DNA from: a virus
Taxonomy: Duplodnaviria; Caudoviricetes
DNA: 55,526 nucleotides
Virus record (IMG/VR): IMGVR_UViG_3300006046_000007
Location: 1 to 55,526 of that record
Strand: one strand, 5' to 3'
Each line of letters opens with the position of its first letter. Positions within the stretch are counted from its first letter, which is position 1. The position numbers were made by a program, and so were the translations under genes. The notes under the pieces are model-generated. The model searched no databases, was not told where the DNA came from, and saw nothing but the letters and a program-made list of their open reading frames with translations. This document shows positions 135 through 55,526 of the stretch, in pieces.

Positions 135-2888
135 CTAGGCGTTCGCAAGGTTGTCAGCAATGGTAGACCTAGGTATACCAAGGGCAGCAGCAATCTCGGA
201 TAGGCCACGACCTGAACCAGCCATGGACTTAGCCAATGCCAACTGTCCTGGTGTGAGTGATGATCTGTACCTTGGTGTTGCCAACTCCTTGACCCTGTCC
301 ATGTTGCTGTTGTTCAGTATCTCCCTCAACATTGTTGAAGACACAGCGCCTGCTTGAATAGCATCCCATTCGCGTTGCAAGAACGGTACGTGCTCAGACC
401 CAATCCTTTGCTTAGCTGCCCCTGTCTGCAGGCGTGCATCAGCAAGAGACTGATACTGTATCTTCTTAACGTCATCCTTATCAATGTTGGGATTAGCATC
501 TATTCTAGCTCTAGCTGTTGCGTTGCCAACGATCTGAGCACGGCGCTCTAGAGGGGCGTTCATCTGTGCCTCTTTAAGCTTAGCCTTTAGGGACGCTACC
601 TCTGGAGCATACTGTGCCTTAGCGCTCTTAGACTGTAGAGGATCCTTAATAGACACCGCTGTCTTACGTGCTGTGTTAGCCATAGCCTTCAACGCATTAG
701 CGTGTTGAGCATAGACTACTTCCATAGGTTCGCCAGATGAAAGCTTGTTCGCATCCTTAGTGATTGCTGAATCACCTTTAGCAAACTTACTCACTACTGG
801 TTCAGTAGTCGTAGTCTTTACACCGGTGCGGGCATTAGTTCTAGTAACAGTACGTGTTCTACCTGTAGGTACGTAAACTAATTCACCAGTCTTAGGGTCA
901 ATAGATCCACCCTCAGACGCACGACGTAACCGAAGCTGAGGAACCCTTTCTGTAGCTGACGATAGAGAGATGATAGTAGAAGCACCCTTTGTAGGACCGC
1001 CTTGCCACTTGGCCTTTAGTTGGGCAATGCCGTTGTCCTTCTCTGACTGCTTGTAATCAAGGGTATGCTTCTCTGCATCGATGACTACCATAGAATGCCG
1101 AATCGCACGTGAGATCTCTGCTCTATCAGCACCCTTAATAGTCATGTCCGTGATTAGGTTTGAAACCTTACCCATCTCTTTCTGAGTGTTAGCCTTCGTC
1201 ATCTTCGTCATACCCGAAACTTCAGGATACGCAGATTTAGGGTCGAAGTCACTAAGCTCTGTAAGAATAGGTTTAGACTTAACCTTGCCGCTGTTGTTAG
1301 GGATAACAAGAACAGCATCGCCATCGAAGTCGGCGCCAGACAACTGTTTTGCCACTGTATGGTGAATACCAATAGCATCCCTAGCATTACCCATAATACT
1401 CTTTGCTGTGCGGTTACTATTGTTTACCGTCAGCTGAGGTATCTCAAATGGGCCACCATGCGGATACCGAACGAGGGCTACCCTTTCTCCATTATTGAAG
1501 TTAGGCGCATAAACCTCGGTTGGCCGCATACTGTTCATAGGAAGAATAGCATGACTAGATTGGCGGGGTAGAGCAGCAGCTTTCAGATGTACCGATGCAG
1601 AATCTGCCGAAAGAGCGAAATCTTGCAACAATTGTTTCTTCACAACTGGATTAGTCAAAGCCAAGATGCCGTCAAGTTCTTTTTGTTTAGCATCACGCGT
1701 TTTCGCTAGTTGAGTAGCGGCCAACGTAATTGATTGCTTCGACAACATCTGTGAAGAAAGAGATCGAGCCCATCCGTCCCAAGCACCTTCCTCATTCACC
1801 ATGTTAAGTGAAGAGGTTCGTTCAACGCCCTTGCTATCCTTATATGTTACTGGATAAGTTGTTGCCCCGAATCGATTACCCGCATTTTCTGCGCCTTCTT
1901 TCAAAGGTTTCAAAATGGAGTTTTCTTTAGGGCCAAGCACAGGCGTACCTTTAGGTTTATTGGTGTTGAACCGAATGTCGGTGCCGGCTGGAAGATCATT
2001 AGCATAAATAGCCATGCCCTTGAGGTAATGAGTTCCGTCGACAGCAACTCGTACCTGAGCATAACGATTAGCACCTAGATCTAGTGATGGAACGCCACGA
2101 CGAAGCTCAATGACACCATCCATCTGACCGCCACCATCTTCAGCAAAACGAACTTGTAGCTTTTTAGAACTAACTGATACAGGTTCTGCTTTCGGAGTCG
2201 TAAATGTCAAACCACCATCATCTGACCGATCCTTGATGTTGTAAACAAGACCCGCATCAACTGCAGCTTTAGCTTGACGCCAAGTGCTTCCGGGAAGAGC
2301 TAGAATTTTCAACTCGGTCAACTTGTCAGTACCTAGTTGTGGAACTTTGACCAACCAAGTCTCATAACCCTCATCCTTCAATGCGGCAATCGCAGTACGA
2401 AGTTTAGTGTCAGCAACCCCAAGATAAAGCTCAGTTCCTTTACCAACATCCAACCAAGTCTTCGCATGAAGGTGATCTTTTAGAAGGTTAGAAATTGCTT
2501 GAAGAGTTTTGTCCTTGATGCCTTCAGATGTCTTCAACCACCCGCGAACTGTCGATTCTTTGTTTTCATCACCAAGCATTCGCTTAGCAATCGCACGAAC
2601 TGACATACCTTTGTCATTCTTAAGCTTTTGAGCCAAAGCTTGGTTCTCAGCGAAGATGACATTAGTTGAAACAGAGATAGCAGCACGAAGGTCTGTTGTC
2701 TTGATGCCCAACGTTTGCGCAATTTCGGTATCGCTCATTGGCGGATCTCCGTTGCGCATGGCGTCTAGATGAGCCTTGAAATCCTTAGACCTTTGGTAAG
2801 GAGTGCCACCGCTTCCCCAAGGATAACGGCCAGAACGTCGGATGATTCCAATGTGCTCTAGAACTTCTCCGTTTTCTTCAGGCTCCAC
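135..2888 (-). CDS. Putative single-chain two-barrel (DPBB) RNA polymerase with N- and C-terminal HTH motifs
   Basis: 917 aa; LSGADFDGD catalytic motif preceded by LVRYPHGGPFEI (R-x-P motif of RdRP/YonO-like enzymes); HTH-like segments SDTEIAQTLGI, SVRAIAKRM, LSEIAAALGIPRSTI. Confidence 0.8.
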   Translation of the reverse strand: MEPEENGEVLEHIGIIRRSGRYPWGSGGTPYQRSKDFKAHLDAMRNGDPPMSDTEIAQTLGIKTTDLRAAISVSTNVIFAENQALAQKLKNDKGMSVRAIAKRMLGDENKESTVRGWLKTSEGIKDKTLQAISNLLKDHLHAKTWLDVGKGTELYLGVADTKLRTAIAALKDEGYETWLVKVPQLGTDKLTELKILALPGSTWRQAKAAVDAGLVYNIKDRSDDGGLTFTTPKAEPVSVSSKKLQVRFAEDGGGQMDGVIELRRGVPSLDLGANRYAQVRVAVDGTHYLKGMAIYANDLPAGTDIRFNTNKPKGTPVLGPKENSILKPLKEGAENAGNRFGATTYPVTYKDSKGVERTSSLNMVNEEGAWDGWARSLSSQMLSKQSITLAATQLAKTRDAKQKELDGILALTNPVVKKQLLQDFALSADSASVHLKAAALPRQSSHAILPMNSMRPTEVYAPNFNNGERVALVRYPHGGPFEIPQLTVNNSNRTAKSIMGNARDAIGIHHTVAKQLSGADFDGDAVLVIPNNSGKVKSKPILTELSDFDPKSAYPEVSGMTKMTKANTQKEMGKVSNLITDMTIKGADRAEISRAIRHSMVVIDAEKHTLDYKQSEKDNGIAQLKAKWQGGPTKGASTIISLSSATERVPQLRLRRASEGGSIDPKTGELVYVPTGRTRTVTRTNARTGVKTTTTEPVVSKFAKGDSAITKDANKLSSGEPMEVVYAQHANALKAMANTARKTAVSIKDPLQSKSAKAQYAPEVASLKAKLKEAQMNAPLERRAQIVGNATARARIDANPNIDKDDVKKIQYQSLADARLQTGAAKQRIGSEHVPFLQREWDAIQAGAVSSTMLREILNNSNMDRVKELATPRYRSSLTPGQLALAKSMAGSGRGLSEIAAALGIPRSTIADNLANA

Positions 2889-3809: not shown

Positions 3810-3838
3810 TCCTATATAATGCATTGTTTCAGCTGCGA
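3810..3838 (-). promoter_or_regulatory. Phage promoter-like motif copy
   Basis: Minus strand TCGCA-GCTG-AAACAA-TGCATTAT-ATAGGA matches the 29-bp consensus. Confidence 0.65.
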
Positions 3839-15897: not shown

Positions 15898-15946
15898 TGT
15901 TTCTCCTTTGGTAGGGGTCTCATATAACGCTTTGTTTTCGCCGCGA

Positions 15947-16033
15947 AAAAGAGAGGCATTGGTTATCCAATGACTTCTGCCTATGTTATCCAGGTTAACC
16001 GTATAAAACGGCACTGGAGGTAGTCACTCTCTC
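15947..16033 (-). ncRNA. Putative ~85-nt structured small RNA cassette
   Basis: Between motif 16030-16058 and a T-run abutting the next motif; no RBS-led ORF; stems GAGAG/CTCTC, GTGACT/AGTCAT, TCCAG/CTGGA, CCGT/ACGG, CATTGG/CCAATG. Confidence 0.5.
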
Positions 16034-16100
16034 ATTTAAACCCTTGTTTTAAGCGCGAAAAAAGAGAACGCCTTGTTTCCAAAGCGCTCCCTCTTTGAGA

Positions 16101-16277: not shown

Positions 16278-16366
16278 GTGTCTCCTTCGGTAGTAGGGTC
16301 TCATATAAACCCTTGTTTAACCCGCGAAGGAGAAAACTAGAAGCCTTGTGGGCTTCTAGTCTTGAC

Positions 16367-16519: not shown

Positions 16520-16645
16520 GTTGTCTCCTTGGGTAGTGATGGTGTCATATAATGGCTTGTTTCTGACGCGAGATGGAGTGAAGGGGACCGACGGACTATG
16601 GCTGTAACTATCATCGGCCCCCTCCACGCTTTAGGGTTTAACCTA

Positions 16646-26392: not shown

Positions 26393-26421
26393 TCTCATTT
26401 AGTGCGTTGTTTTTACCGCGA
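26393..26421 (-). promoter_or_regulatory. Phage promoter-like motif copy
   Basis: TCGCG-GTAA-AAACAA-CGCACTAA-ATGAGA. Confidence 0.75.
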
Positions 26422-31592: not shown

Positions 31593-32465
31593 TCAGATGA
31601 GATCCCAGATGACCCCATCGATGTTGAAGTTGAGACGCGCAGTACGTTCTTTGCCGTTGCGGAATGCAATAGCTTGCGGGTCTTGACTAGACATGAAACC
31701 AAAGTCGACAAACCCGTCGCCATCACCGTCTAGCAACCATCCTGCCACGATTGTCTCCCTCGTTCGAGGAATGCCGAGAGCATCGTAAACCTCGAACAGA
31801 AACACATGCCCCTTGATTTCGAGTACTCGGTTCATATGGTTCTGAACGCTCTTTAGGAACAAGAAATTCGTGGTTGCGTCTCGAGTCCAGTTGGGGTTGG
31901 CCTCATCGAAGAAAGGTCGTAGGTAAGAGTCGGGCTGATCCGTGAACTTTGGCATCAGCTTGTATTCACCCTTGTGGTCGGGGTCTTCCTCCCATTGACC
32001 AACCGCACCGTCGTAAATATTCCGCTCCATCTCAGGACCGACAGTCTCTGAGACCCGTGCACGATATGCTTGGTACTGCTCCATTAGACCGGTGTAGGCA
32101 GCCATCGTAGCAAGATGACGACCTCGTAGAACCCGGTGCCCATACAGAACGCTAGCTGCCGAAAGCGTACCTACGGCCAATGTAGGACCGTAAAGCTTGA
32201 GCAACTCGATTGATGTGGCTCCGTAAAGGCTCACGACCTGCTTCTGCTCGTCCCGTGCGGTCACGGCGTTAGCAGCAATGTCGATACGCACTTTGGCATG
32301 CTCATCGAGAATGGGGTCAAGCTTGCGCGTGGCCTTTGCAGCCAAGACTGCCGTAGCTCCAAGGCCCACGACACCCGTAACGACCAAGATGGTCGGGCTG
32401 TGCTTGTTCAGCTTGAGTAGCTGACGACTACCAAACCTTGTAAGGCTGGTCGGGACGTATTTCAT
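31593..32465 (-). CDS. DUF6353-like protein, paralogue 1
   Basis: KHSPTILVVTGVVG...LAAKAT; GHVFL.EVYDALG; FNIDG. Confidence 0.65.
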   Translation of the reverse strand: MKYVPTSLTRFGSRQLLKLNKHSPTILVVTGVVGLGATAVLAAKATRKLDPILDEHAKVRIDIAANAVTARDEQKQVVSLYGATSIELLKLYGPTLAVGTLSAASVLYGHRVLRGRHLATMAAYTGLMEQYQAYRARVSETVGPEMERNIYDGAVGQWEEDPDHKGEYKLMPKFTDQPDSYLRPFFDEANPNWTRDATTNFLFLKSVQNHMNRVLEIKGHVFLFEVYDALGIPRTRETIVAGWLLDGDGDGFVDFGFMSSQDPQAIAFRNGKERTARLNFNIDGVIWDLI

Positions 32466-34720: not shown

Positions 34721-34796
34721 CGGTATCTCCTAAAAGTGATAAAAGACAAAACCCTATACCTTGCTGGGGTATAGGGGCGGGATCAGAGTCCAGGAC

Positions 34797-35033
34797 CTAG
34801 GCGGTCTCGGACGAGGCGTCGAACGGGACGTCTGAGGCGGGTGCCTCGGTCGTGTCGGCGGCCTGCCTGCGGTTCTTCACGACGGAAATCGCTCCGAAGG
34901 TGGCAGCGGTGAGGGCGATGACGCCGACGACCTTTGCGGTTCGGGGGTGATTGACGGTGAAGGACTTCAGGCGGGAAGTCTTCTCGACCTGGGGCTCAGT
35001 GGCCTCGGGCGTTTCGATCTTGGGCTCGGCCAT
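34797..35033 (-). CDS. Cassette gene, membrane protein (MAEPKIET...)
   Basis: Motif 35064-35092, AAGGAG RBS, terminator at ~34741-34777. Confidence 0.75.
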   Translation of the reverse strand: MAEPKIETPEATEPQVEKTSRLKSFTVNHPRTAKVVGVIALTAATFGAISVVKNRRQAADTTEAPASDVPFDASSETA

Positions 35034-35173
35034 GATTGGCTCCTTTGGTAGATGGATGGTCGATCTCATTATGTGCATTGTTTTTAGCGCGAATATAGAC
35101 GTCCCCATAAGGCCCCTAGCCGAATTGCCAGGGGCCGGTGAGCAGTAGAGCTATCTGAGTAGCCAGAATGGGC

Positions 35174-35947
35174 CTACGGACAGCCCATGTTCTCTTTTGG
35201 GGCCTCGTGAAACCAGATGCTATGGGCGAGACGACCGTCCTTGGCAGTCACCGAACCGAATCGTCCTTCAACCTTGCTGCCTCCAGACCATCCGAACGAG
35301 TTGCCCATGGGAATTGGAGGCAACCCGACATACTCATAGAAGTCATTGAGGCTGGCGTCACCGTTGTCAATGATCAGTCGGTTGATGTTATTGATCGCGC
35401 TCTCGAGATTAGCAAACGATCCCGTAAAATATCGACCAGACCAATCATCGTAACAAAGCTCATCGCCATTGCTGGTGATCATAACTTCTGTGTTCTCATC
35501 GAACGGGTTACGGTCGATCTGCTTCTGAGCCACATCGTTCTGAAGTTGTTGGGTCTTCTTGGGCCCCAACGCTTTCTCGGCCTCAGTAGTCAGATCATCC
35601 AGTCGGTTACTGGTGACGGCGTATAGAGCAGCTACAGCACTGGCACGCTTGGTCAAAACTGCATGTCCGCCAATGGCTGCTGCGATTGAGCCAGAGGCTG
35701 ACAGTGCCGGCAACGTATAACACGGCCAGGTCAGTCGAACGATCTCTTGAGTTGTCAGAGGCGCTGACGTCTCATATGAGTCACGTTCTGCCTGAGCCTC
35801 ATCGACGATGCCACGAGCGTTCCAACCAGCCTTGGCAGCAAGCACCCCGGTTGTCACGACACCAGCGATAGTTGTACCGAGCAACAGCACTGGGCTGTTC
35901 GCGGTGATGACGGACTTGGCCGTCTTAACGTAAGATGCTAGATTCAT
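35174..35947 (-). CDS. DUF6353-like protein, paralogue 2
   Basis: NSPVLLLGTTIAGVVTTGVLAAKA; CYDDWSGRYF; SLNDFY..GL. Confidence 0.65.
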   Translation of the reverse strand: MNLASYVKTAKSVITANSPVLLLGTTIAGVVTTGVLAAKAGWNARGIVDEAQAERDSYETSAPLTTQEIVRLTWPCYTLPALSASGSIAAAIGGHAVLTKRASAVAALYAVTSNRLDDLTTEAEKALGPKKTQQLQNDVAQKQIDRNPFDENTEVMITSNGDELCYDDWSGRYFTGSFANLESAINNINRLIIDNGDASLNDFYEYVGLPPIPMGNSFGWSGGSKVEGRFGSVTAKDGRLAHSIWFHEAPKENMGCP

Positions 35948-36245: not shown

Positions 36246-36576
36246 GATAGTTCCTTTCGGATAGTCAGAGAAAAAGAAAGAAGCGTTGCTGGCGGGCAAC
36301 GACTAGACTACTAGCTTCTTCTGTCATATAGGGCATTGTTTTTACCGCGAATTCAGCGGGTCAAATGTACTGCTCTTCTCCCGAAACTCTTTAATGCTCT
36401 CGAATATAGATGCCTCTTTGGGTGTCCAGAACTCGTCTGAGCAACCGGCTTTCTTGTATCGTTTCTGTTGAGCAGTTTCGAGATCCCATGCAATTAACTC
36501 ATGAAAGTCCATCTCTTCGTCCACGATAAATCCTTTCGGAGAAAAACCTAAACCCATTGCGGGCTTAGGTGAACTA

Positions 36577-36759: not shown

Positions 36760-36834
36760 GACAAGTCCTTTCGGTGGTAGTTGTCATATAAGGCCTTGTT
36801 TTGGATGCGAAAAAGAAAGAGCCCTGGTGGGGAC

Positions 36835-36972
36835 TCAGTCTTTGTGCTCCTTGCACTCGGTGATCTTTTGAATGATTCCGTTTCGATAACACACCGAGCA
36901 TTCGTCTGGCGCTCCGCCGTAGGTACGGTCGAGCCAGGCTTCTGCCCAAATGTCATCATCGATTTGGTTCAT
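36835..36972 (-). CDS. Cassette gene, 45-aa CxxC...C..H peptide (MNQIDDDIW...)
   Basis: Motif 36992-37020, AGGAG RBS; below the ORF-track length cutoff. Confidence 0.7.
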   Translation of the reverse strand: MNQIDDDIWAEAWLDRTYGGAPDECSVCYRNGIIQKITECKEHKD

Positions 36973-37037
36973 GATGTCTCCTAGTGTAGGGGTTCATATA
37001 AAGCCTTGTTTAATCCGCGAAAAAGGAAGAGCCCTTG

Positions 37038-37322
37038 TTAGGGCTCAACCTTGATTCGAGTTACGGGTACGAAGCGGGTTTCGATACCAGGCGGTACTGT
37101 TGCGAAGTCGTCTAGAAATTCACGTTCGGTGTAGATCAGGTAAGGCATGCGGATCGACCTGTAGAAGGAATCTTTGACATAGTAGACGGGGTTAGCTGGG
37201 TCCGAAATATCGGTGCCCATTACTTTGTCATACCAGTTATCAGAAACTTCCTTCTTGTCAATACCGAGTGTCTCAGCGATCAGATCGATGTTCTTACTAG
37301 TCAACTCAATGGCCGTTGGCAT
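37038..37322 (-). CDS. Cassette gene, hypothetical
   Basis: Motif 37342-37370, AAAGGA RBS. Confidence 0.75.
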   Translation of the reverse strand: MPTAIELTSKNIDLIAETLGIDKKEVSDNWYDKVMGTDISDPANPVYYVKDSFYRSIRMPYLIYTEREFLDDFATVPPGIETRFVPVTRIKVEP

Positions 37323-37410
37323 AATAGATCCTTTCGTAGGTTCTCATTAAACACCTTGTTTTGAGCGCGACAAAGACCTAAACCTTTGTGGGGTTTAGGT
37401 AGAGTTATAT

Positions 37411-37569: not shown

Positions 37570-37681
37570 ATTAGTACTCCTTTGGGGGATAGGTCTCATA
37601 TAACACCTTGTTTTGAGCGCGATTCCCACCGGGGAAAAACCTAAACCCTTTGTAGGGGTCTAGGGTCGAGATGATGATGGA

Positions 37682-37924: not shown

Positions 37925-38009
37925 GATAGGTCCTTTCATAGAGGTCTCATTTCATGCATTGTTTTCACCGCGACAAAACCTAAACCCGTGTGGGGTCTAG
38001 GTATGTGAG

Positions 38010-38120: not shown

Positions 38121-38222
38121 GATGTCTCCTTAGTAGGATGTTTCTCATATAGGGCCTTGTTTCTAGTGCGACAAAACAGAAAGCCTTGTGGGCCTTCTGC
38201 TTGGGGGTATTCGATTGTGGGA

Positions 38223-38342: not shown

Positions 38343-38568
38343 AATAGGTCTCCTAAATCGGGAATATCTCATTATGTACATTGTTTTCTACGCGAATTCC
38401 ACCGGGGAATTTTTGCATTTAAAACGTTGAATTTCCTCCGGAGGAAGACCTCCCCAACCAAAAGCATGTCCATTTAGTCGTTTTACTACCATTTTGATTG
38501 TTTTGAGAGGATAGACAAAAAAGAGAACCCCCGTTCCGATTGTGGTTCGGGGGCCCCTTCTTTTGGAA

Positions 38569-38922: not shown

Positions 38923-38982
38923 TAGGCAATAGCCTTTCGCTAGAGGATAGTTCTCGTTATAAGCCTTGTTTCCGGCGCGAAG

Positions 38983-54942: not shown

Positions 54943-55526
54943 TTAGACAGCGACGCCGGTGAAGTCCCACTCGTCCTGCGCGTTGTTGGGGAAGTACTTA
55001 CCCGCAGCAGCGATCGCGATGACGTGCAGTTCCTGACCCTCAGTCAGCGTAACCGGGGAACCAGTTGTAAGGGTCGCACCTGCAGCGTTGTCGACCTTGT
55101 ATGTAACGTTCGCAACAGTCGGAACCGTAACAGTGCTGGTGCCTTCATCGAACACAGGAGCAGTCGGCTGAGCAAGCTGAACATCAGTGCTGACGTGCGC
55201 ACGGAAGACCAGAGCTGACTTCGGCACAGTCAGAGCACCTGAGACCCGAGTCTCGATCAGGTAGAGGAGCTTGTTGTAGTCAAGGTCGAAGTCGTCGAAC
55301 ATCGTGGCCTGGCCACCACGGTCTGCACCAAGGGTGTAGTCCGCAAGATTGACCATGACACCGACAAGGGTGTCATCGCGCTCCATGACCTCCACCGGAA
55401 CAACGTCCTTCACACGAAGAACAGCGGCGATGTCAGCGAGCGTGTTGTAGAGGCGCCGACCAAAGCTGTCCTTGACCGTGAGGAATGCACCAATGGTAGC
55501 TTCCGTGGTATAGAACGTCGGAGTGC
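54943..55526 (-). CDS. Major capsid protein, C-terminal part (5' truncated by the window)
   Basis: VNLADY.LGADRGG...FDDFDLDYN...YLIETR.SGAL..P; C-terminal Ig-like domain similar to that of the major tail protein. Confidence 0.85.
   Translation of the reverse strand, partial: TPTFYTTEATIGAFLTVKDSFGRRLYNTLADIAAVLRVKDVVPVEVMERDDTLVGVMVNLADYTLGADRGGQATMFDDFDLDYNKLLYLIETRVSGALTVPKSALVFRAHVSTDVQLAQPTAPVFDEGTSTVTVPTVANVTYKVDNAAGATLTTGSPVTLTEGQELHVIAIAAAGKYFPNNAQDEWDFTGVAV

Follow-up and report, generated by a model that had tools for sequence, protein, structure and literature searches.

What does the 917-amino-acid (aa) protein do that is encoded at one end of the IMG/VR virus record IMGVR_UViG_3300006046_000007 (Duplodnaviria; Caudoviricetes), and is it this protein that reads a 29-bp motif repeated in the same genome? 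The record is linear, stems from an uncultured soil virus, is estimated to be 93% complete and was analyzed over its whole length of 55,526 bases, which is meant by "the window" throughout. The initial annotation had put forward that a compact two-barrel RNA polymerase hides behind the label "helix-turn-helix (HTH) protein", and the findings compiled here bear this out on the level of predicted fold and conserved residues. Membership of the protein in the two-barrel (double-psi beta-barrel) RNA polymerase superfamily is supported by its modeled structure, and catalysis is predicted. We regard it as reasonably probable that the protein is a single-chain, DNA-dependent RNA polymerase of about 100 kDa that works without a sigma factor and whose own HTH units read the 29-bp element; that it is catalytically active, that it copies DNA, that it is the enzyme which recognizes the motif and where transcription starts are what we infer from the evidence laid out below.

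The assignment to the superfamily is carried by an AlphaFold2 model that was built on an alignment of 44 relatives (mean predicted local distance difference test score, pLDDT, 80.4; predicted template modeling score 0.66). When it was compared with the PDB by Foldseek, the top match was QDE-1 (E 1.7e-8), followed by P23-45 gp64 (3.0e-5), RDR2 from maize and Arabidopsis (3.2e-5), P74-26 gp62 (3.4e-5) and the polymerase part of P23-45 gp96 (3.0e-4), with bacterial beta-prime chains matching more weakly (about 4e-3 to 1e-2). The Foldseek probability was 1.00 for QDE-1, gp64 and RDR2. Matches in BFVD, a library of viral structures, included P23-45 gp64 and phage entries termed "RdRP" (RNA-dependent RNA polymerase), and YonO was not among the entries named for the fold matches from either the PDB or BFVD. 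Pairwise superposition by VIA-align aligned 376 residues with QDE-1 (Z 14.9, root-mean-square deviation, rmsd, 4.2) over model residues 231-855 and yielded Z 14.8 for RDR2 and 12.0 for gp62. The strand-rich segment from aa 244 to 366 lies inside the stretch that aligns with QDE-1, RDR2, gp64 and gp62 from model residues 231-237 onwards. Rpb1-type chains aligned with Z 9.6-10.1 over model residues ~434-636 and isolated double-psi beta-barrel domains with Z 9.6-9.8 over residues 438-534, that is, the fold on which the initial annotation had made its reading depend is indeed predicted. The relation to known polymerases is visible on the level of fold and motifs only.

As far as motifs are concerned, both the SGADFDGD sequence and the R-Y-P upstream of it, which had been pointed out before, are present in the 917-aa open reading frame (ORF; Table 1). 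Conservation was assessed in an alignment that comprised the window protein and 148 representatives of clusters at <=50% identity, P0087 and the 670-aa fragment P0128 being left out. R474, P476, S517, G518, A519, D520, D522, G523 and D524 are invariant in all 149 sequences. In the region of the first barrel the same is true for G258, Q278, R280 and K290-G291, and D257 is conserved in at least 90% of the sequences. Chance is ruled out as the cause of the conservation of the catalytic motif, of R-x-P and of the residues of an N-terminal tag described further below. The study of Ruprich-Robert and Thuriaux (PMC2919709) lists R446 and P448 of Rpb1 among eight residues that are invariant in all two-barrel RNA polymerases. 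Judged by order and spacing, R-x-P and the three aspartates would be equivalent to five of these eight, and D257, R280 and K290 are candidates for the remaining three (Rpb2 D837, K979 and K987).

The invariance of these residues also bears on the proposal that the protein is nothing but a DNA-binding regulator with an inactive polymerase-like core. Such a function corresponds to "HTH DNA-binding protein", the annotation of most SEA-PHAGES records, and HTH domains are the only near-threshold Pfam matches of the window protein. A decayed enzyme, however, would lose its metal-binding and R-x-P residues, which are retained by 149 out of 149 diverged members, and about 500 core residues are conserved, with 3220 cluster representatives at E<=0.001. 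We therefore deem a purely regulatory role scarcely credible.

Other records of the family carry the labels "RNA-dependent RNA polymerase" or "hypothetical protein". The former is the name of PHROG 4291, the profile of which is matched by the window protein over practically its entire length (E=0 with 1085.8 bits; aa 5-915 align with positions 7-906 of the 909 in the profile), and several GenBank records are so named. A match to PF05183, the QDE-1/RDR family, is confined to aa 511-577 (14.2 bits, E 0.017); of the 44 aligned family members 40 match this family at E<=0.01, the best with 2.6e-7. An RNA-templated enzyme would agree with the fact that the eukaryotic RNA-dependent RNA polymerases QDE-1 and RDR2 provide both the solved structures nearest in fold and the sole polymerase family of Pfam that is matched. 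The name, however, was given on similarity alone; QDE-1 itself is reported to possess DNA- and RNA-dependent activity (PMC9508822), the characterized phage members YonO, P23-45 gp64 and gp96 are reported to transcribe DNA, and a double-stranded DNA phage equipped with promoter-like motifs has no evident RNA template. Transcription of RNA is accordingly considered very improbable, and the databases very likely misname the family as "RNA-dependent", a term inherited from PF05183.

The family as such is not new. It has already been recognized in silico in a 2021 preprint (10.1101/842583), in which Koert et al. report an HHpred hit to PF05183 with 95.68% probability, HTH motifs at both termini and a DxDGD loop, and propose RNA polymerase activity. 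The words promoter, intergenic, "conserved motif" and repeat do not occur in the main text of that preprint. The window protein is a new and fairly divergent member: its identity to proteins of sequenced phages is below 60% throughout (best 49.4%), and the nearest metagenomic protein is 84% identical. A tblastn search detected the family, which comprises proteins of actinophages and of Lactococcus and Faecalibacterium phages, in 250 of 50,697 phage records, 249 of them covering at least 80% of the query; the genera represented include Arthrobacter (95), Gordonia (55), Streptomyces (54) and Lactococcus (13). Large protein collections hold at least 7999 relatives, and when clustered at 50% identity the family amounts to 3220 clusters or more (E<=0.001).

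HTH units are present at both ends of the protein. Pfam detects HTH_38 (aa 87-104) and HTH_23 (aa 893-911), both just below the cut-offs of the database, and the same families recur in 28 and 41 of the 44 members, respectively. Positions 95-146 of the family profile match the psq/CENP-B-type HTH protein 2elh_A (E 0.07). When the C-terminal 171 residues are folded alone (pLDDT 84.7), the model shows a long hairpin of helices and, after it, two units of three helices each, and the last 45 residues superpose on the HTH of Tc3 transposase over their full length (Z 7.6, rmsd 1.5). Values for the HTH units of Tc3 transposase, GcrA, resolvase and Myb range from Z 6.4 to 7.6; 8jzt_A, the entry for a complex of SigF and anti-sigma factor, ranks lower (Z 5.5), and Foldseek with the C-terminal domain returned nothing at E<=0.001. 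Sigma70_r4 scores 12.2 bits on the window protein as against a cut-off of 24.1, and the protein is thus not assigned to sigma-70 region 4; 12 of the 44 members match Sigma70_r4 and 19 match r4_2 at E<=0.01. Of the earlier suggestion that built-in HTH units substitute for a sigma factor, the units themselves hold up. They are real but of the generic three-helix type, and "replacing sigma" is a functional idea and not a statement of homology.

The putative target of these units, the 29-bp element, reads TCGCG-N4-AAACAAGG-N2-TTATATGAGA on the gene strand. Its reality is confirmed by a weight-matrix scan at >12 bits that detected 16 copies, every one of them on the minus (gene) strand, whereas the plus strand and 20 shuffled sequences contained none; since the matrix was built from 14 of the 16 copies, only two count as independent finds. 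T1-C2-G3-C4, A10-A15 and A24 are invariant in all copies. Ten copies lie at 35.0-39.0 kb after the holin genes, one at 26.4 kb, four at 15.9-16.6 kb and a weak one at 3810-3838, and the scan of the whole window revealed none in the structural/lysis arm. Twelve of the 16 are followed at a distance of 19-30 nt by a start codon with a preceding Shine-Dalgarno sequence, the start having been read from the printed sequence for three of the twelve, in which the script had taken an ATG inside the motif. Two strong copies within 15918-16058 are 112 nt apart and no ORF is found for 132 nt after the upstream one; this pair could constitute a tandem promoter or give rise to a small non-coding transcript. 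Terminator-like hairpins with similar loops (CCC..ACAAGGG) and T-runs reside directly upstream of several copies, and the early region is therefore composed of units of hairpin, motif and small gene. Look-alike hairpins occur in Streptomyces phage Scap1 (L004 23369-24057 and 27167). The bases that follow the motif are also common to several copies in the window and in Scap1 (L004 22653-26883), namely GAGACCCCTAC..., then AAAGGA and a start codon, which suggests a conserved initial transcribed sequence or leader.

The same architecture recurs in phages of two bacterial phyla, as it is found in phages of Actinobacteria and of Lactococcus (Table 1). A strict version of the pattern retrieved 95 stretches from IMG/VR. 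The motif co-occurs with the polymerase gene: the latter is present in 45 of 71 motif-bearing IMG/VR records (those behind loci L006-L085; L034 and L086-L100 are outside this count) and in 21 of the 22 among them that are at least 90% complete, for which the 250 of 50,697 phage records given above serve as base rate. The sole exception among the 22, the close relative G003, carries the motif no fewer than six times, and its helicase shares 70% identity with that of the window. Its candidacy as a complete motif-bearing genome without the polymerase was rejected, as the contig ends 1.46 kb after the helicase gene and before the usual position of the polymerase gene. A literature search with 10-mers of the motif returned no phage paper among the matches listed.

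Information on transcription comes from assembled RNA. Soil metagenome runs contain the early region of 5 kb, and short portions of this region are also present in two runs from a single soil metatranscriptome study. RNA contigs placed on 25-45 kb merge into seven intervals, all of which are within 34.5-39 kb and none of which crosses a motif; stretches of 25-45 kb devoid of RNA contigs do not signify silence. The upstream ends of five of the seven intervals are located 25, 16, 13, 19 and 8 nt downstream of the motif core, one of them being the end of an adapter-flanked fragment. On random placement the absence of any motif crossing has a probability of 0.0078, and the full pattern was obtained in none of 200,000 trials. 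These ends hint that transcripts start at the 3' end of the motif; which polymerase starts them is not identified by the contigs. At positions 34893 and 37217 of the window the two metatranscriptome runs have G in place of T and T in place of C, respectively, while the DNA run shows the same bases as the window; the population that is expressed belongs to a strain that differs slightly.

Taken as a mechanism, the proposed single-chain polymerase would comprise a catalytic core of about aa 231-746, in which a beta-like barrel is followed by a beta-prime-like barrel, and R-x-P and DFDGD of the second barrel would bind the catalytic magnesium. A flexible tag and an HTH region at the N-terminus, a long linker of helices and the two C-terminal three-helix HTH units would flank the core. 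Recognition of the 29-bp element by these HTH units would render a sigma factor dispensable, transcription would start at or just after the GAGA end of the motif, and the enzyme would in this way bring about the expression of the short transcription units, early and middle ones, in the non-structural arm.

Several points weigh against this reading. Searches of the PDB by sequence, both with the single protein and with a profile of 44 members, yielded no polymerase but only HTH proteins and chance matches, and the literature searched held no biochemical or bench work on any family member. The PF05183 score of 14.2 bits is below the Pfam gathering cut-off of 23.8, and the window protein is therefore treated as a structural relative of that family and not as a filed member. 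The equivalence of the basic residues R280 and K290 of the first barrel to K979 and K987 of Rpb2 is deduced, not observed. The RNA evidence consists of contigs from the two runs of a single study, lacks strand information and true 5' ends, and may include carry-over of DNA. Many relatives, 24 of 63 distinct motif strings from IMG/VR, have a perfect TATAAT as downstream hexamer. Finally, the polymerase gene is situated at the far end of the motif-bearing arm, behind the weak copy only; something else must transcribe it first, unless the polymerase is delivered together with the DNA.

The last two points are at the same time the basis for assuming that, although the protein has the activity of a two-barrel RNA polymerase, the motif is read by the sigma-A RNA polymerase of the host, perhaps with a phage factor on the TCGC and AAACAA blocks, in which case the phage enzyme would be left with late transcription, read-through or anti-termination. 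Besides TATAAT as 3' block in many relatives and the polymerase gene as last one in the motif-bearing arm, a TTGTCG spotted by eye 16 nt upstream of the hexamer in a subset of the window copies would be in line with such a division of labor. Position 2 of the hexamer, on the other hand, is A in only 3 of the 16 window copies and in 37 of the 63 IMG/VR strings, and in the other register position 6 is G in 15 of the 16. The invariant TCGC and AAACAA blocks sit where a sigma-70 promoter has its spacer, and a sigma-70 consensus scan of 34.5-39.5 kb called none of the ten motif copies through the TATA-like element. The numbers returned by scans for sigma-70-type promoters and terminators were those of shuffled sequences, the terminator-like hairpins of the early region excepted. 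In addition, the architecture is kept in phages of Actinobacteria and Lactococcus and tracks the polymerase gene in the 21 of 22 near-complete records. Going by its sequence, the motif is not a plain, typical sigma-70-type promoter, and reading by the host enzyme appears unlikely to us.

The surroundings of the gene suggest yet another role. Helicase, HNH, VRR-Nuc, Cas4-like and polymerase genes follow each other in this order in the window as well as in Gordonia phage Perkunas, Arthrobacter phage Heisenberger and Scap1; the polymerase gene, after the VRR-Nuc and Cas4-like genes, is the second-to-last of the genome in the window and in relatives, so that the window gene occupies the conserved position at the right genome end. 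Its start codon is found 2 bases after the stop codon of a 194-aa gene, the counterpart of the Cas4 exonuclease gene of related phages, and the two appear to be translationally coupled. An enzyme encoded in such a replication and recombination module might produce primers or R-loops for replication or recombination, its HTH units targeting an origin. A primase/polymerase of 1223 aa, however, is already encoded by the phage, and primer synthesis leaves unexplained both the 16 dispersed, gene-oriented motifs 19-30 nt before start codons and the RNA contigs that begin after motifs. We assign only a slight probability to this function. No other transcription factor was recognized when 75 other ORFs of the 99 called on the minus strand of the window were scanned with Pfam.

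Whether the polymerase could enter the cell with the DNA is a question raised by its N-terminus. The initial annotation had noted a resemblance of the N-terminal peptide, LEHIGIIRRSGRYPWGSG (aa 10-27), to leaders on virion-internal proteins. This tag is probably flexible, as indicated by low model confidence (pLDDT 38-59). In the 149 sequences S19-G20-R21 is invariant, and H12, G14, Y22 and G25-S26-G27 are conserved to at least 90%. A regular expression for the tag, run over six frames of the window, hit the polymerase only, and Pfam found DUF7211 in none of the 75 window ORFs; the terminase-portal region is missing from the record, and whether the phage has other tagged proteins can therefore not be judged from the window. 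A profile of the polymerase-type tag detected no other ORF in the loci of the 80 nearest IMG/VR relatives, in L001, in L003-L005 or in the window, and elsewhere just two small ORFs, which are confined to L101 (G045). In this G045 sub-lineage the large terminase gene has on either side a gene for a small, very basic protein; both proteins bear L-x-H-Y-G-L-P-R-R-S-G-R-Y-K-W/Y-G-S-G, and eleven positions are invariant between their tags and the polymerase tags of five phages. The polymerase tag does resemble tags of small basic proteins from the head-gene modules of relatives. Similar small ORFs match the first ~100 positions of the polymerase profile in 7 of the 71 records.

At the same position next to the large terminase gene, all six nearer relatives examined, Scap1 (gp06) and G003 encode small basic proteins with a DUF7211 tag (L-x-H-[YH]-G-[IV]-x-G-M-[KR]-W-G-V-R-R). 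This tag and that of the polymerase share the pattern L-x-H-[YHI]-G ... W-G near the N-terminus, and resemble each other in L-x-H-x-G and W-G only; where DUF7211 (PF23847) has x-G-M-K, the polymerase tag has R-x-S-G-R-Y-P. PF23847 did not match the N-terminus of the window protein even at E<=10, and two of four polymerase N-termini of relatives gave E 0.035 and 0.085, both below the cut-off of 27 bits. A paper naming DUF7211 was not found in the literature searched. In G003 a 105-aa ORF near the right end (L190 19061-19378) ends with ...GGIKWGVRKKK, a DUF7211-like string at the C-terminus instead of the N-terminus.

Three protease-capsid fusion proteins contain L-x-H 5, 5 and 4 times, respectively, as compared with about one expected for each, and one of these sites is a conserved L-x-H-G-[IVL]-[TD]-N-x-x-x-L-F-P at the junction of spacer and capsid. 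Such sites fit a cleavage site of the head protease and hence a location of tagged proteins in the head, an argument built on three residues. The protease-capsid fusion of G045 (L101 1-1569, L106) has an extremely acidic spacer with a long D/E run at aa ~180-280 and the adjoining tagged proteins are very basic, and an electrostatic recruitment of the latter into the prohead is conceivable. The capsid-targeting sequence of T4 offers a functional analogy for the tag. The tag and the L-x-H sites bear the possibility, which we put forward tentatively and with less than even confidence, that the polymerase is a passenger of the virion: a variant of the DUF7211 tag would load it into the prohead, the S78 head protease would trim it after His12 at L-x-H, and the enzyme would leave the virion together with the DNA and, independently of host factors, use the 29-bp promoters to transcribe the first genes.

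Table 1. Positions of the polymerase gene, its predicted parts and the 29-bp motif in the window, and form of the motif in related phages
Feature	Position	Strand	Basis or remark
Polymerase ORF, predicted single-chain two-barrel RNA polymerase, PHROG 4291 family	135..2888 (stop codon included)	minus	917 aa, GTG start
C-terminal pair of three-helix HTH units, aa 838-917	138..377	minus	last unit HTH_23-like; 2lvs_A E 0.0045; Tc3 fold match
Second beta-barrel, beta-prime/Rpb1-like, aa 440-534, bearing R-Y-P and DFDGD	1287..1571	minus	fold alignments, conservation
SGADFDGD, predicted Mg-binding catalytic loop, aa 517-524	1317..1340	minus	invariant in 149/149; within PF05183 stretch aa 511-577
R474-Y475-P476, R and P invariant	1461..1469	minus	44 residues upstream of first Asp
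First beta-barrel region, beta/Rpb2-like, aa 237-366	1791..2180	minus	strands 244-366; QDE-1 alignments from model residues 231-237
N-terminal helical region with HTH unit, aa 53-143	2460..2732	minus	HTH_38 at aa 87-104; 2elh_A match
N-terminal tag, aa 10-32, L-E-H-I-G-I-I-R-R-S-G-R-Y-P-W-G-S-G-G-T-P-Y-Q	2793..2861	minus	pLDDT 38-59 for aa 1-30
Weak motif copy, 20 bits, ends ATAGGA	3810..3838	minus	ahead of VRR-Nuc / Cas4-like / polymerase run
Motif copy	15918..15946	minus	matrix scan
Motif copy, no ORF in 132 nt before next copy	16030..16058	minus	matrix scan
Motif copy	16299..16327	minus	matrix scan
Motif copy	16543..16571	minus	matrix scan
Motif copy just downstream of primase/polymerase gene	26393..26421	minus	matrix scan
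Motif copy; RNA contigs end 25-34 nt downstream	35064..35092	minus	matrix scan, RNA contigs
Motif copy	36322..36350	minus	matrix scan
Motif copy directly after terminator-like hairpin	36782..36810	minus	matrix and terminator scans
Motif copy directly after terminator-like hairpin	36992..37020	minus	matrix and terminator scans
Motif copy; RNA contig ends 16 nt downstream	37342..37370	minus	matrix scan, RNA contigs
Motif copy	37594..37622	minus	matrix scan
Motif copy; RNA contigs end 13-23 nt downstream	37945..37973	minus	matrix scan, RNA contigs
Motif copy	38143..38171	minus	matrix scan
Motif copy; adapter-flanked RNA fragment ends 19 nt downstream	38367..38395	minus	matrix scan, RNA
Motif copy, first after holin genes; RNA contig ends 8 nt downstream	38952..38980	minus	matrix scan, RNA contigs
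Terminator-like hairpins	36546-36570, 37640-37664, 34752-34776, 37029-37046, 36819-36836, 36284-36301	minus	terminator scan
Motif of Gordonia phage Perkunas			TCGCAGGAAAAACACGGCCTATAATGAGA
Motif of Arthrobacter phage Heisenberger			TCGCG TAAA ATACAAGGGC TATAATGA.A
Motif of Streptomyces phage Scap1, six copies			TCGCAAGTTTTACATGC.TTATAGTGAGACCCCTAC
Motif of Lactococcus phage P118, eight copies			TTTTACATACCCTATAATGA.AG

All long ORFs of the window are on the minus strand, and the record is cut at both ends: positions 1-134 are inside a small gene that follows the polymerase gene and runs past the window end, and positions 54946-55526 are inside the capsid gene. Despite the completeness estimate of 93%, the parts for small terminase/tag protein, large terminase, portal and protease are missing. 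Two paralogous DUF6353 proteins, which match at E of about 1e-52 to 1e-53, are encoded in the early/middle arm on the minus strand (31596-32465 as well as 35177-35947). In some relatives the polymerase match is interrupted by an in-frame stop codon, a single TAG in G028, G030, G034, G045, G052 and G055, TGA in G021 and TAA in G037, which could be due to reassignment of stop codons, an artefact of the start site or sequencing errors.

Should the proposed function hold true, the protein would be a sigma-free, self-targeting relative of cellular RNA polymerases of ~100 kDa with a defined 29-bp promoter, among the smallest such systems, and the labels "RNA-dependent RNA polymerase" and "HTH DNA-binding protein" would have to be corrected. 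The family, which has at least 3220 clusters and occurs in phages of Actinobacteria and Firmicutes, would provide a tractable model for promoter recognition by a minimal two-barrel core and a candidate orthogonal expression tool for Gram-positive hosts. The linkage of motif and polymerase together with the ends of the RNA contigs makes the promoter hypothesis directly testable, just as the tag and the L-x-H sites do for packaging. If the polymerase does travel in the virion, an N4-like strategy of "bring your own polymerase" would be common among siphoviruses of soil and gut.

The closest counterparts of the window protein are its phage homologues in PHROG 4291, Scap1 gp55, Perkunas gp93, Heisenberger gp99 and P118 gp79, which have the same domain order, terminal HTH units and DxDGD. 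QDE-1 from Neurospora and plant RDR2, the best structural matches (about 350-450 residues over both barrels), are likewise single-chain enzymes with DxDGD; identity to them is as low as 11-13%, and the window protein lacks head or slab domains of the eukaryotic kind and carries HTH modules in their stead. Unlike these two, it probably uses a DNA template and a promoter. YonO of the Bacillus prophage SPbeta, reported to be a ~100-kDa single-chain relative of the multisubunit polymerases that transcribes DNA (PMC5467207), is similar to the window protein by this description. P23-45 gp64 and P74-26 gp62 (8F72, 8F5M), non-virion RNA polymerases of Thermus phages, are small single-chain two-barrel enzymes that align with Z 11.1-12.0 over about 360 residues. 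Like the window protein in the reading favored here, gp64 has been linked to a conserved promoter motif of its own upstream of early genes, as stated in the respective study (10.1101/2022.12.01.518664), in the main text of which the word helix-turn-helix does not appear. It differs in its size of about 600 aa, in its GC-rich promoter motif and in that its gene is reported to be transcribed first by a virion polymerase fused to the tape measure protein. If the N-terminal tag loads the window enzyme into the head, the strategy may be the same as that of gp96, the virion-delivered polymerase of P23-45, with an injected phage enzyme reading early promoters. The N4 virion RNA polymerase and gp66 of phi14:2, a crAss-like phage, are virion-delivered phage RNA polymerases as well, the N4 enzyme being a T7-like single-subunit polymerase and not a two-barrel one.

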